Virus record (IMG/VR): IMGVR_UViG_2778261641_000011
DNA length: 40,638 nucleotides
Direction: 5' to 3' (one strand)
DNA from: a virus
Taxonomy: Duplodnaviria; Heunggongvirae; Uroviricota; Caudoviricetes
The notes under the pieces were generated by a model that was given only the letters and a program-made list of their open reading frames with translations, was not told where the DNA came from and did not search any database. Positions 23,348 through 40,638 of the stretch are shown in pieces. Every line of letters begins with the position of its first letter. The first letter of the stretch is position 1. The position numbers and the translations under genes are program-made.

Positions 23348-23393
23348 GCAGTTGAGAATTATTATCACTAGGCAGTTGAGAATTATTATCACT
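23348..23393. repeat. Two tandem 22-bp direct repeats (gcagttgagaattattatcact) between the HNH and terminase genes; candidate cos/terminase recognition element
   Basis: Exact copies at 23348-23369 and 23372-23393; a flanking GC-rich inverted repeat lies at 23291-23340. Confidence 0.5.
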
Positions 23394-30154: not shown

Positions 30155-30804
30155 GCCGCCATCTCCCTGACCAGTTTTTCCGCCTGCTGGCGAACCTGCA
30201 CCAGAAAGGCTTCACCACATGCCTCAAGTTCATCGCGCCCGATGTAGCTGATTGCCGGTCCCTTCCAGGTCTTGTCGAAAACAGCAATAGCACCAGCGAA
30301 GAAAGCTCCTGTCGGCACCTGCTTCTCATCCTTCGGGATAAACCAGGCAGGCAGTTCAAAACCAATACGCCCGCGAATAAAAGCAATATGGTCCGCATCT
30401 TCCGGCCACCACACTTCGCTGGTGGCAGCTTTGATCAGGAAAACATAGCGCCCGCCCTTATCACGCATGGCACTGGCATGTTTCATGATGTAACGCATGC
30501 CGGTGATGTATTGCCCCTCATGCTGACTGGCGCGGCTGTATGGGGGATTACCAAAGGCAGCACCTTTAAGCTCCGCAAGACGTTCTGACCAGTCATGTGC
30601 CAGCGCATTGTCTTCCGCCGTGTAATACGCGGCACATTTGGCGTTATCACCGTCGGTGAACAGATCCAGAACAAACGGGCCAAACAGGGTGTTAATTCCC
30701 CAGAAAATGTTGTCCGGCGTGCGCCACTGATCGCCCACTTCCTTCAGTTCATGGGCTGGTTTGTTCCGCAGTTCCACCAGCGCCTGGCAATATTTATTAC
30801 TCAT
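30151..30804 (-). CDS. Phage Dam-type N6-adenine DNA methyltransferase
   Basis: Start at MSNKYCQ (TAATG coupling with the upstream stop; track ORF extends to 30837). Catalytic GNPPYS motif. Confidence 0.75.
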   Translation of the reverse strand: MSNKYCQALVELRNKPAHELKEVGDQWRTPDNIFWGINTLFGPFVLDLFTDGDNAKCAAYYTAEDNALAHDWSERLAELKGAAFGNPPYSRASQHEGQYITGMRYIMKHASAMRDKGGRYVFLIKAATSEVWWPEDADHIAFIRGRIGFELPAWFIPKDEKQVPTGAFFAGAIAVFDKTWKGPAISYIGRDELEACGEAFLVQVRQQAEKLVREMAA

Positions 30805-31298
30805 TAAGCCCCCACGTAATTCCCTGACAGATACCACTCTTCACCCGATGCAGCGCGCTTGCTGCTTTTCCGTAAGCACCGCTCACGACGCGCCAGAAAA
30901 TTGTTTCGTTCTGGCTGGAAGTGGCTTTCACGGAATGCCGCCATCCACACGGTTGCAGCACGACGGTATAAGCCCCTGGACTCCAGTTCTTCAGCCTGGC
31001 GGGTCAGGCACAAAATCACCCGGGGATCGTTAGTGCCGACATAGAAATTGCGCACAGGTCTGGTTTCACGAACTGGTTGTGGTTCCGGCTCCTGCGCTCT
31101 CTCAGTCAGGCGTGGGAAATGTCTGCGTGTATCTCCTTCACAACGGTGAGCCACACGCCCACTCTGACGTAACTTGCTTGCTGACTGCAGAACGCGCTGC
31201 CGTGAGTAACCTGCAAAAGCATCCGCAATGTCTCCGGAAGTACAGCCCGGATGGGCTTCAATGAATTTCTGAACGTCATTCAAAAGACTCATAATCAC
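30804..31298 (-). CDS. Hypothetical early-region protein
   Basis: 164 aa; ATGA overlap with the replication-gene stop; basic C-terminal half. Confidence 0.5.
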   Translation of the reverse strand: MIMSLLNDVQKFIEAHPGCTSGDIADAFAGYSRQRVLQSASKLRQSGRVAHRCEGDTRRHFPRLTERAQEPEPQPVRETRPVRNFYVGTNDPRVILCLTRQAEELESRGLYRRAATVWMAAFRESHFQPERNNFLARRERCLRKSSKRAASGEEWYLSGNYVGA

Positions 31299-32221
31299 CC
31301 CCTGAATCCTGCCGGGATCTGGCTGTAGTCCACGTTGTCGTAACTGGATTTGAAGTACGGGTCTTCGCGTTTTTCGGTGTACGTGCTTACGGACGGCGAT
31401 AAGCGCAGGGAAAGCTCATCCCATTTTTCCCGCAGCTTCGACGGGCTGAGCACGTTACGGCACCAGAACGGATCGCGGCTGACGCGGCTGTACATCTCGC
31501 AGATTTGTTTGTGAGTACGACCATCCTGCACACACATCAGGCGAATTTCGTTTGCCCAGGCTGTCCAGTTCGGTTCTTTGGGACGAACCACCTCGCCGTC
31601 ACATTCGGCAGCCTGCTCGTACAGGGCGATGATTTTTTTCCAGAGCCACTGTGCGCAGGTCAAATCATCCTGCGTTCCCCACTGGCGCTTTTTAGGGCTG
31701 AATACAACCGCATCAGGATGGCGAGTTAAAAAATCATGTTCATCCGTCTGCGTGTCCGGTTGCGAAGCGTCCGGACGAGAAGGTTTTTTATCTGACGGAT
31801 CATGTTTTGATTTTACTGACGGATCCCCGCCAGATTCTGACGGGTGAAAACCCGATTTTTTGCCAGATTTCGACGCATCAAATTTTGACGGGTCAGATTT
31901 TGACGGGTCAGAATCTGACAGTTGAGAAAATGCCGCTGCCTGAAGCTTCGCAACGTTAAGCTGATAAACATTCGACGCATTGCGGTTACCCTGGCGACGC
32001 GCCTTACGCGTTAACCAGCCTTCTGCTTCCAGCCGTGCGATAGCCGTTCTGACGGTGCTCATCCCCGCGCCAATCTGGCGGGCAATGGTTTCAATTGATG
32101 GCCAGCACACACCTTCGTCATTACTGAAATCAGCCAGGCGGGCCATAATTGCCACGCTGGATAACTTCATGCCTGACGCAGCGCAACCATCCCATACATA
32201 GCCGGTTAATTTAGTGCTCAT
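31295..32221 (-). CDS. Replication initiation protein (winged-helix N-terminal domain, O-like role)
   Basis: 308 aa; N-terminal wHTH region (VAIMARLADFSNDEGVCWPSIETIARQIGAGMSTVRTAIARLEAEGWL); low-complexity linker encoded by internal iterons. Confidence 0.6.
   Translation of the reverse strand: MSTKLTGYVWDGCAASGMKLSSVAIMARLADFSNDEGVCWPSIETIARQIGAGMSTVRTAIARLEAEGWLTRKARRQGNRNASNVYQLNVAKLQAAAFSQLSDSDPSKSDPSKFDASKSGKKSGFHPSESGGDPSVKSKHDPSDKKPSRPDASQPDTQTDEHDFLTRHPDAVVFSPKKRQWGTQDDLTCAQWLWKKIIALYEQAAECDGEVVRPKEPNWTAWANEIRLMCVQDGRTHKQICEMYSRVSRDPFWCRNVLSPSKLREKWDELSLRLSPSVSTYTEKREDPYFKSSYDNVDYSQIPAGFRG
31790..31920. repeat. Iteron-like direct repeats (TGACGG-containing) inside the replication gene; candidate ori
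   Basis: At least five copies of (c/t)TGACGG(g/a)tc at 31793, 31817, 31838, 31884 and 31900, including the tandem ttgacgggtcagattttgacgggtcaga. Confidence 0.5.
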
Positions 32222-32230
32222 GACCGACCT

Positions 32231-32569
32231 CTATTTCCCTGAATTTACGACGAAACTGTTCGAGCGGACTGAAGCATTCATGCTCATAGCCTTCGCGGAG
32301 GTAGATAACCCGTTGTGTTTCCGGTTCCCAACGAATGACTCTGACGGGCACTCCGTAGTGATCTTTGAACCAGCGGTTAACTTGTCGCAAAGGACTGTCT
32401 CCTTCTGCCGGTTGAAATCACCCACAGCCCACTCAGCAAAGCTGTGGGTTACAATTTCCCTGTCACCTGGTACATTCACTGCATAGCAATATTCCACCTT
32501 CGCTTTTCCACCCGGTACAGGAAGCGCAATCAGTTGCGAGCGACGGTAGTGTGTTGTTAAACTGTTCAT
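32231..32569 (-). CDS. Hypothetical early-operon protein
   Basis: 112 aa; ATGA overlap with the upstream gene's stop and 9-nt spacing to the replication gene support translation on this strand. Confidence 0.45.
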
Positions 32570-33195
32570 GCGTTAGTTTCTCCACAACCAGAAGCAATCG
32601 ACGCCACGACGCCCGGAGCTGCACACTCGCGGGCGTTACTCTTTTCCGGCGCACAAAAAACACGAAATAACAGTGTTAAATGCTCCTGCCACTTCGCCAT
32701 TACTTGGTAGCTGTTCTCTTCGATTTGCTCACGCTCAGCCTGGTCAATAACTCCATCAGCAGTTGCCTTGCGTAAGTACTGGGAATGCTTGCCAATCCAT
32801 TCTATTGACTCCATCAGCCGCTGATTAATGTCACCATTGTCAATGTCATCAATGACCACCAGCGGCACAAACACCCCATTACTACGACGGGCTATCGCAT
32901 CCGTTACATGCCTGGTACCACTGGCATCCTGTAAAACCATGGCCCACTCAAGTGGAAAAATTTGATCCCCACCGCTACGCAGTCTGTTATGCAATTGATC
33001 TTTTGCTGGGGTGATATCATCAGATTTATACAAACCAAGAATTTCTGCTGCTTCCTCATAGCCATGAGGTAAATCAGCAATCGTTCTTCGTATTGCTGCC
33101 ACCAGCCATGCTGGCTGTTTATCAACTTTCCATTCAGGTTCTTTACCCACGTTTAAGTCCTCATATCTGTGGTTTCTGTAAATCGATTTATCCAT
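32566..33195 (-). CDS. Putative cII-like early regulator (function uncertain)
   Basis: Position immediately after cro. Start placed at the internal Met (MDKSIY; alternative MKNLMDKS at 33207); the track ORF reaches 33264 and would overlap cro. Confidence 0.4.
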
Positions 33196-33485: not shown

Positions 33486-34112
33486 ATGGAAACGGTTGGT
33501 CAGCGTATAAAAGCTCTGAGAAGGGTTACCAGAACGTCCCAGAAAGAATTGGGTAAATTTTGTGGAGTAAGTGACGTTGCTGTGGGGTACTGGGAGAAAG
33601 ACATCAATGTCCCTGGTGGGGAAGCACTTTCAAAATTAGCGAAGTTCTTCAATACGTCAATAGATTACATTCTTTATGGTGCTGAGTTTGAAGGCAAACT
33701 CGTCACAAACATGCGCAGAGTTCCTGTAATCTCGTGGGTGCAGGCTGGGCAGTTTACTGAGTGCAGGACAGCAGAAGTGTTTAGTGAAGTAGACAAGTGG
33801 GTAGATACATCATTAAAGATTGGTGATAACTCATTTGCATTGGAGGTTAAAGGCGACTCCATGACTAACCCTAATGGCCTCCCAACAATACCAGAAGGCG
33901 CAACAGTGATTGTAGATCCTGATGCAGAACCCCGGCATGGAAAAATAGTCATCGCTAGACTTGATGGAACAAACGAAGCCACAGTAAAAAAATTAGTTAT
34001 CGATGGCCCTCAAAAGTTTTTAGTGCCATTAAATCCCCGGTACCCCAACATCCCGATCAATGGTAATTGCCTCATCATTGGTGTAGTCAAAGGAGTTCAA
34101 TACGAACTCTAG
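33486..34112 (+). CDS. CI-type prophage repressor (HTH plus S24 LexA-like peptidase domain)
   Basis: 208 aa; N-terminal HTH (TSQKELGKFCGVSDVAVGYWE); Ala-Gly site (VQAGQF); Ser in GDSM and Lys in TVKKL. Confidence 0.85.
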   Translation: METVGQRIKALRRVTRTSQKELGKFCGVSDVAVGYWEKDINVPGGEALSKLAKFFNTSIDYILYGAEFEGKLVTNMRRVPVISWVQAGQFTECRTAEVFSEVDKWVDTSLKIGDNSFALEVKGDSMTNPNGLPTIPEGATVIVDPDAEPRHGKIVIARLDGTNEATVKKLVIDGPQKFLVPLNPRYPNIPINGNCLIIGVVKGVQYEL

Positions 34113-39004: not shown

Positions 39005-39085
39005 GGCCTCTCAAGCGGAACACTAAAAGTCGCATTATATCTCATTCTTAAGCCGCGTATGGATTACACCTTGAAATGAAAACGC

Positions 39086-39107
39086 CGGGTTCCCAATAGG
39101 CTCCCAC
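39086..39107. promoter_or_regulatory. GGTTCCC-type repeats next to attR (candidate integrase arm sites)
   Basis: ggttccc at 39088-39094 and ggctcccac at 39099-39107 match the motifs at 1613-1647. Confidence 0.35.
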
Positions 39108-39129
39108 AGAGTGTATAACTACTTGTTTT

Positions 39130-39615: not shown

Positions 39616-40638
39616 TTATTTCGCCGATTTAACCCCGAATAAATCATAAATTAAATTAGAAGTATCTGTAAGTATTTTAATCTTTTCCTTTGAGTTTGGG
39701 TCAAACGACTTAGCAAAGTCAATTAATTTCGGTGCAGCATCTCGCATTTTGCTTAAAATATCAGGTTCGAGCTTTCCTTCATTCACCAGAAGTGACATTT
39801 TATCCAGATAGTCATCAAATTTCATCCCCCCCCGGTCCGCCAGATGCTTCATCTCTCCCAGGTACTTCTTCATATCACGTTGAGATAATTCTTCAAACTG
39901 AGCTGTCAGATAGTTCTCATTATATTCATTAATATTCACTTTTTCTGCTCCGGCTAAATCTGTGTAGGCACTAGAATATGAAAGTGAAATTAACAGCGAA
40001 GCAAATAATTTTAAGCTGTTGTCATCATGTTCCTGGCAGGCATTAACAAACGTTAAAAAACCAGAACCTATTGCTTGAAAATGTATATTCGCTAAAGGTT
40101 CATTATCCTTAGATTCCTCATAAAATAGCTGAACCGTGGAGGGAAGGCCATTCTTAGTTTCTACATCAAAAGTACATCGTTCAATGGGAGTCGCATCTTT
40201 ATTATCCCCAGGATTACATATACTATTAATCGCGAAATGAAAAATAGCCCGGTCAACAACTGATGCAATAAAGTCACGATCGTTTAAATCCTCATCAGTG
40301 CAATCGTCAATATACTTATTGACCCACACTTTGAGATTAGTTATTTGCTCAATTAAAAACACATTTTTTTTACGTGCATGCCATAAATTATGAGTGATTC
40401 TTTGAATAAACAAATCTATTTTTGCAATAATTATATCCCGATGACGCAGCGCTGAATAATCAATAGACTTACCATATATATTATTTAATTTACCTTTGAT
40501 TGTACCTCTATTATCTAATTTATCTTTGGTTGCATCTATATTATCTAATTTATCTTTGTTTGCATCTTTATTATCGAATTGATTTGAATTGAGTGTTTTA
40601 TTAAAGTATCCAGTTGCACCGGGTATTATCTTCAACAT
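39616..40638 (-). CDS. Host-flank hypothetical protein with a KD-rich tandem-repeat N-terminal region (possibly 5'-truncated by the window edge)
   Basis: 340-aa ORF reaching the last base of the window; AT-rich; N-terminal region repeats KDKLDN-type units. Confidence 0.5.
40481..40593. repeat. Tandem ~30-bp direct repeats (about 3.5 copies) within the host ORF
   Basis: ttatctaatttatctttggttgcatctata-like units at 40481, 40511, 40541 and 40571. Confidence 0.55.

Follow-up and report, generated by a model that had tools for sequence, protein, structure and literature searches.

A probable iteron-type replication origin inside the lambda-O-like initiator gene of an SfII-related prophage

Results

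An O-like initiator gene in a lambdoid-type prophage

The window, i.e., the whole 40,638-nt stretch of DNA that was analysed (IMG/VR record IMGVR_UViG_2778261641_000011), is a lambdoid-type prophage, about 97% identical to Shigella phage SfII over most of its length. A cI-like repressor gene on the plus strand (33486-34112) is divergent from a cro-like gene, after which the minus strand carries a YmfL/cII-like gene, a small gene, the initiator gene, a PerC-like winged-helix (wHTH) regulator and a Dam methylase, and, further on, a LexA-like protein, RusA, a KilA-N-type regulator, an HNH protein, and Q. The coding features that concern us are the following, with the evidence for each in brackets.

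31295-32221, minus strand: replication initiator gene, 308 aa including the stop codon (ORF list, megablast, PHROG 391)
31931-32221, minus strand: N-terminal winged-helix (HTH_36) domain, residues 1-97 (Pfam, PDB sequence matches)
31403-31741, minus strand: C-terminal helical domain, residues about 161-273 (tblastn, AF2 model)
31298-31330, minus strand: C-terminal tail DYSQIPAGFRG (BLASTP and hhalign against E. coli DnaT)
30804-31298, minus strand: wHTH/PerC-family regulator, the next gene (Pfam PerC, E 4e-8; PHROG 1324, 'transcriptional activator')

At the DNA level (megablast, phages), the initiator gene is 97% identical to SfII_41 and SfIV gp41, which are annotated as 'primosomal protein' or 'replication protein O'. 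An earlier reading of the window, made from the sequence only, had taken this gene for a replication initiator, an assignment borne out by its full-length match to PHROG 391 'replication initiation O-like' (E 3e-134), the likeness of its C-domain to that of lambda O, and its HTH_36 N-terminus. PHROGs 277 and 9773 are matched as well and are likewise 'O-like'; PHROG 2514 'DnaD-like helicase loader' (E 3e-29) scores below these families, and Pfam DnaD_N reaches 19.4 bits, under its 27-bit cut-off. Pfam HTH_36 is matched with E 4e-11 at residues 23-70, together with GntR/MarR-like families, the winged helix as a whole taking up residues 23-90, and a PDB sequence search with the whole protein returned, for the N-domain, weak MarR-family winged-helix matches only. 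The Pfam scan of the initiator gave no Phage_rep_O match at E <= 0.01. We presume the winged-helix domain to be the iteron-binding domain.

By sequence comparison, the C-domain is homologous to the P-binding C-terminal domain of lambda O (112 aa aligned at 39% identity, E 6e-20, tblastn), and it also matches the O proteins of 933W and 434. For the C-terminal 155 residues, AF2 predicts with confidence a helical bundle that ends in a disordered tail (pLDDT 79); the underlying alignment is shallow, as the homologues of the C-domain in it are mostly partial, closely related sequences. In a Foldseek search of the C-domain model against the PDB, no fold match with E < 1 was found, and no DnaT.

The start of the PerC-family gene overlaps the initiator stop codon. 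Such a stop/start overlap, which reads GTGA in the window (31295-31298) and otherwise ATGA, is present in most of 40 related loci, although the gene that follows is not always the same: its product may be a cytosine methylase, a Dam-like methylase or a wHTH protein of the PerC-like kind. The translational coupling thus withstands module shuffling. Just upstream of the initiator, two minus-strand ORFs (32211-32390 and 32231-32569) overlap in different frames: the 59-aa ORF is a DUF4222 protein (Pfam E 9e-19), and the 112-aa ORF matches PHROG 1170 over its full length and PHROG 20047 with its first 63 residues only. This arrangement could reflect a frameshift, a fusion or a mis-annotation.

A repeat array in the linker-coding part of the gene

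The sequence-only reading had also pointed to at least five TGACGG direct repeats between 31780 and 31925. Five exact copies are present on the plus strand (31793, 31817, 31838, 31886 and 31901), where 0.06 are expected in 146 nt (Poisson P(>=5) ~7e-9), accompanied by two degenerate copies at 31871 (CGACGC) and 31916 (TGACAG); every other 146-nt stretch of the window holds at most two copies. The tandem quoted at that time, ttgacgggtcagattttgacgggtcaga, is found at 31884-31911, and Tandem Repeats Finder (TRF) reports a period of 15 nt with 3.3 copies at 31864-31912. Matches to TGACGGRTCA with at most one mismatch number 12 in the window, five of them inside 118 nt, and there is no second cluster of the motif elsewhere in the 40.6 kb. 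As proposed, all copies are inside the minus-strand ORF 31295-32221 and encode a low-complexity linker, SDSDPSKSDPSKFDASKSGKKSGFHPSESGGDPSVKSKHDPSDKK, which spans residues about 102-146 of 308. Read in gene orientation, the array consists of the following elements.

31863-31918: four tandem 15-bp units (repeat finding, TRF, core search, logo of 376 units)
31918-31908: tandem core 1, TCAGATTCTGA
31903-31893: tandem core 2, TCAAAATCTGA
31888-31878: tandem core 3, TCAAAATTTGA
31873-31863: tandem core 4, TCGAAATCTGG
31785-31840: three dispersed iteron-like copies (repeat searches; codons nearly invariant among 67 relatives)
31843-31830: dispersed copy, CCGTCAGAATCTGG
31822-31809: dispersed copy, CCGTCAGTAAAATC
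31798-31784: dispersed copy, CCGTCAGATAAAAAA

With four direct repeats taken as the minimum for an array, the linker-coding part of the initiator gene holds seven copies in total. The dispersed copies follow at start-to-start spacings of 33, 21 and 24 bp, so that all repeat spacings (24, 21, 33, 15, 15 and 15) are multiples of 3. The 15-bp unit occurs in 2 to 7 copies among relatives, and SfII and SfIV have one unit more than the window (a gene of 942 nt vs 927 nt). The in-frame spacings, the variable copy number and the low complexity of the linker are all compatible with repeats that are a feature of the peptide only, in which a disordered S-D-x-S-K linker grows by replication slippage and its uniform codons reflect recent duplication (concerted evolution).

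Selection on the linker DNA

We fetched 80 loci encoding relatives of the N-domain, one genome per species, of which 67, from more than 25 Enterobacterales genera and with N-domains 70-100% identical, were usable. Synonymous-codon identity, defined as how often two loci that agree in a residue also agree in its codon, is 0.83 in the linker (residues 98-157) vs 0.435 in the N-domain (residues 1-97; Mann-Whitney p = 4e-19; 67 relatives), whereas amino-acid identity is lower in the linker (0.60 vs 0.79). Columns with a conserved residue use four to six codons in the N-domain and mostly one or two in the linker, and the non-tandem part of the linker is as frozen in its codons as the tandem part. 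Because synonymous sites are frozen in a linker whose amino acids are more variable, selection acts on the DNA. The resulting element can be delimited as follows.

about 31754-31930: DNA-level conserved element, linker residues 98-156, proposed origin region (codon conservation)

The repeat region first delimited as 31780-31925 is real, and the element conserved at the DNA level is somewhat wider.

The same signal is seen in the individual S-D-x-S-K units (n = 376), when compared with codon usage elsewhere in these genes. Ser4 is TCA in 88% (16% elsewhere), Ser1 is TCT in 78% (9.5%), Asp is GAC in 80% (46%), and Lys is AAA in 285 of 286 (62%), while the amino acid at position 3 varies between A, P, T, G, V and R. 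In gene orientation, the unit consensus TCTGACnCrTCAAAA resolves into one contiguous conserved block, TCAAAATCTGA, and one contiguous variable 4-nt block, CnCr, with no three-periodicity. What is conserved in the unit is therefore an uninterrupted near-palindrome of 11 bp, TCArAATCTGA, which recurs every 15 bp in the tandem part; its form TCAGAaTCTGA is an 11-bp palindrome with an A-tract. This modifies the original definition of the repeat: the TGACGG copies are real, but their CGG/CCG triplet belongs to the variable part, and the core is TCArAATCTGA. A contiguous block without three-periodicity is the pattern of a protein-binding site rather than of coding constraint in any frame, and a near-palindrome with A-tracts is what would be expected of such a site.

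These data leave little room for the peptide-only explanation. Codon choice is uniform among genera whose N-domains have reached synonymous saturation; the residue at unit position 3 varies, but Ser, Lys and Asp keep their synonymous third bases; and the non-tandem linker is equally frozen. Since the variable block shows that mutations do accumulate in the array, recent common descent or homogenisation fails to account for the frozen positions. Together with the out-of-frame repeats of a sister N-domain type (see below), this makes a purely peptide-level origin of the array very improbable, and supports the view that the repeats are a cis-acting DNA element, not a peptide repeat.

The repeats travel with the N-domain across module swaps

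Initiators in which one of the two domains has been exchanged allow the association of the repeats to be traced. In Citrobacter phage phiNP and many other loci, the same N-domain and repeat linker are joined to an unrelated, DnaD-like C-domain. Conversely, mEp460_4F5 and PhiR42_1 share the C-domain (97% and 60% identity) but have an unrelated N-domain, and their linker carries, at the same position, 5-6 copies of another, 23-bp repeat (..GGTCAAAATG..), spaced by 23/24 bp and hence in no fixed reading frame. Across the C-domain swaps, in the linkers of 70 loci, the repeats always occur with the N-domain and never with the C-domain. The repeats therefore travel with the DNA-binding domain, as the origin does with the N-domain of O in lambdoid phages.

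The 3' edge of the conserved element requires separate consideration.

31754-31783: junction segment encoding PSRPDASQPD, common to both N-domain types and both C-domain types

Homology with mEp460_4F5 stops at about 31794. The domain-swap junctions thus fall at this edge, and a PSCPVAAQPD-coding segment is common to different C-domains and to the other N-domain type, as would be the case if the linker DNA were a module-boundary sequence homogenised by frequent homologous exchange, with no binding function. Homogenisation, however, would keep all positions alike, whereas here the 4-nt block varies and the 11-nt core is fixed, and a mere boundary does not account for repeats that are always with the N-domain and never with the C-domain. 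For the array as a whole, we regard this as the least probable of the accounts that we weighed; it may hold for 31754-31783 only, a segment that may mark a module boundary (recombination) and lie outside the origin proper.

Other signals in the repeat region

We also searched the region for other cis features. The most AT-rich part of the gene abuts the array:

31778-31819: most AT-rich 40-mers of the gene, 30% GC, candidate unwinding region (composition profile)

In gene orientation, this stretch follows closely on the tandem units, a place that the A/T-rich region also takes in lambda. It includes two repeat copies and is the lowest-GC 40-mer of the gene, yet it ranks only at the 3.8th percentile of the window, and it is thus a weak candidate for an unwinding element. 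DnaA boxes are not enriched, with none in or beside the array (the closest one-mismatch match is at 32578), and promoter and terminator scans of 31200-32400 gave chance-level matches only.

Conservation at the DNA level could in principle serve another purpose: autoregulation or handcuffing sites with the origin elsewhere, a hairpin in mRNA or ssDNA, or a small overlapping gene. The sense strand of the repeat region folds unusually well (z = -4.64), and all of 63 loci have an uninterrupted +1 frame through the linker. The fold, however, goes back to the opposite orientation of the first and fifth copies, which form a long-range inverted repeat with 80% complementarity between 31831-31855 and 31893-31917 (the fifth copy vs the first tandem copies). 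The distance between its arms changes with the repeat copy number in relatives, and we regard the hairpin as a probable by-product of near-palindromic sites, although it may have a function of its own. The overlapping gene was rejected, as its ORF lacks an ATG in 19 of 66 loci and begins and ends at varying positions, and the conservation is not three-periodic. Finally, the lack of a second motif cluster in the 40.6-kb window speaks against a separate origin with the present sites as mere operators. Taken together, we judge such alternative signals quite improbable.

A DnaT-like tail and no phage-encoded helicase loader

The statement of the sequence-only reading that no helicase-loader or helicase gene lies nearby holds for the prophage as a whole. 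In tblastn searches, lambda P and the E. coli proteins DnaC and DnaB had no match in either the window or the complete SfII genome (41.5 kb), PHROG scans of the early-region ORFs revealed no helicase, loader or primase, and the SfII annotation lists no helicase or loader. The PerC-family gene at 30804-31298, which matches Pfam PerC and the 'transcriptional activator' PHROG 1324, is not a helicase loader. The replication module thus consists of a single gene.

The initiator ends in SQIPAGFRG, which aligns end to end with the extreme C-terminus of E. coli DnaT, SQIPPGFRG (..SEPDSQIPPGFRG; 8 of 9 identities, BLASTP; DnaT sequence taken from MG1655, dnaT at L088:2979-3518). The significant BLASTP alignment between the two proteins comprises these 9 residues only, and hhalign aligns the last 20 columns only (probability 90.7%). 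The tail of PhiR42_1 matches the DnaT PDB chains 2ru8, 6aep and 9zbt (E ~3e-4). Neither the N-domain of DnaT, nor its acidic linker, nor its three-helix ssDNA-binding C-domain was found in the initiator by hhalign, BLASTP or fold search. An identification of the C-domain with that of DnaT was accordingly ruled out, as the hhalign match is the tail alone and Foldseek against the PDB gave nothing with E < 1, and the 'primosomal protein I' annotations in SfII and SfIV are due to the DnaT-like tail alone.

The tail is selected as protein, with five codons in use for its Arg and four for its Gly; its final codon, which is GGA, TCA or ACA, builds the ATGA overlap with the next gene together with the TGA that follows. 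A GFR[G/S/T/C] tail ends the initiator in 42 of 74 loci of the N-domain family. Within the about 1.9 kb past the initiator gene that this check covers, a P, DnaC or DnaB homologue is encoded in none of the 42 loci with the tail vs 7 of the 32 without it; in the remaining 25 tail-less loci, the C-terminus is different and longer, and no partner was detected over the same distance. That the tail stands in for a phage loader is a hypothesis.

A third initiator class (L014, L015, L024, L041, L043, L055, L058-L067 and others) combines the same N-domain and iterons with a longer C-terminus (..WNAIWKE.AQR..) without the DnaT-like tail, and no P, DnaC or DnaB gene was detected downstream of it.

Discussion

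An origin inside the initiator gene is a well-known arrangement, and the present case would be one that was unannotated until now. We consider it probable that the repeats are the iterons of the phage replication origin, embedded in a lambda-O-like initiator gene. The likeness to lambda, in which ori lies inside gene O, had been suggested by the sequence-only reading and finds support in the linker position of the repeats and in the homologous C-domain. What is unusual here is the short 15-bp in-frame unit, the missing loader or helicase gene, and the DnaT-like tail. Several features count against the origin reading: the in-frame spacings, unlike those of lambda (20, 24 and 23), which could stem from growth of the array by in-frame slippage; a 15-bp spacing that is shorter than in classic iterons; the modest AT-rich flank; the strong folding of the sense strand, which may point to a hairpin role in RNA or ssDNA; and the sharing of 31754-31783 among module types, a segment that recombination rather than origin function may have conserved.

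In the mechanism that we propose, the iterons would sit in the disordered linker between the two domains of the initiator, which would be made in cis after transcription from pR. Its N-terminal winged helix would bind the TCArAATCTGA array, with four sites at 15 bp and three more at 21-33 bp, and the nucleoprotein complex would strain the adjacent A/T-rich DNA at about 31778-31819. The lambda-O-like C-domain and the DnaT-like tail would then bring in the host DnaB helicase through host factors. In this scheme we infer that the N-domain binds the repeats, that replication fires here and that the tail plays some part. With no P, DnaC-type or DnaB-type phage gene, this would be an 'initiator-solo' module, a term said to stem from Weigel and Seitz in 2006.

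How DnaT recruits DnaB/DnaC is called open in a 2026 preprimosome structure paper (PMC13377028), and our literature search found no partner assigned to the last residues of DnaT. A speculative extension of our model, which we put forward as a possibility and hold to be doubtful, is that ..IPxGFRG is a linear motif by which both DnaT and 'initiator-solo' initiators pass DNA to host helicase loading, either DnaB-DnaC or PriA/PriB. Phages without a P/DnaC-type loader would then mimic the end of DnaT, and the near-palindromic iterons might also extrude a hairpin as a primosome assembly site.

Comparison with lambda shows how much of the architecture is shared. In both, the iterons fall where the gene encodes the linker that joins a DNA-binding N-domain to a C-domain (in lambda, the annotated iterons 39034-39118 correspond to residues 117-145 of the 299-aa O; here, residues about 99-147 of 308), the C-domains are homologous (39% identical), the coding strand is A-rich downstream of the iterons, and the gene follows a cII-like gene in the pR operon. 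The N-domain, however, is HTH_36 rather than Pfam Phage_rep_O; the 18-bp iterons of lambda at 20-24 bp are replaced by 11-bp cores at an in-frame spacing of 15 bp; the P gene is missing; and lambda O has no DnaT-like tail. The initiators of lambda, P22 and L each bind their own distinct iterons inside their own coding region, and gene 18 of phage L contains six imprecise 11-bp repeats (PMC8022706). Gene 18 of P22 and of phage L thus resembles the present gene in being an initiator with its own iterons in the coding region, but these phages have a DnaB-type helicase, gp12, and this phage has none.

Among tailed proteins, the mEp460_4F5/PhiR42_1 module has the same C-domain, DnaT-like tail and position of the repeats in the linker, and differs in its unrelated N-domain and its 23-bp repeats without a constant frame. 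E. coli DnaT shares the last nine residues, SQIP(A/P)GFRG, at the very C-terminus, whereas its N-domain, acidic linker and three-helix C-domain have no counterpart here. The domesticated DopC combines HTH_36 with a DnaT C-terminal motif, as does this initiator, but it is reported without iterons and paired with the P-like DopE (Brezellec et al. 2017; PMC5509034), whereas the initiator here has iterons and no P.

From our analysis, a likely position can be given for the origin of the SfII/SfIV/SfV-type serotype-converting phages of Shigella and E. coli, as well as for that of a large family of Enterobacterales prophages. In the public records of the SfII whole genome and of the SfIV and phiNP early regions, no origin is annotated at the initiator, the gene being named 'primosomal protein' or 'replication protein O'; a literature search for the SfII, SfIV or SfV origin yielded no paper, and that on the SfIV genome goes no further than naming a 'replication module'. 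A variable linker with frozen synonymous sites is a clean signature by which gene-embedded origins can be found. The single-gene module, an O-like initiator with a DnaT tail and no phage loader or helicase, suggests a testable route to host helicase loading and offers a probe for what the DnaT tail does; the shared-tail reading, if true, would give a handle on how DnaT recruits DnaB/DnaC.

Additional observations

Several initiators of the Enterobacterales type were found in assemblies labelled as unrelated phyla. Those of L013 (Vagococcus sp.), L037 (Chryseobacterium sp.) and L042 (Martelella alba) have N-domains 82-89% identical, and a Nitrososphaerota MAG (L084) contains a more distant relative, 37% identical; contamination or mis-binning is the likely cause.

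The window contains two further repeats. Within the minus-strand ORF 39616-40638, positions 40473-40580 form a 30-bp tandem repeat (3.6 copies, 83% matches); the 340-aa protein encoded there, at the window edge, has a KDKLDN-type peptide repeat at its N-terminus. At 23348-23393, there is a perfect 24-bp direct repeat, GCAGTTGAGAATTATTATCACTAG (1.9 copies), and the ends of the linear SfII record map at 23364 and 23389, exactly at this repeat, which probably has to do with the terminus of the genome or the boundary of the record.
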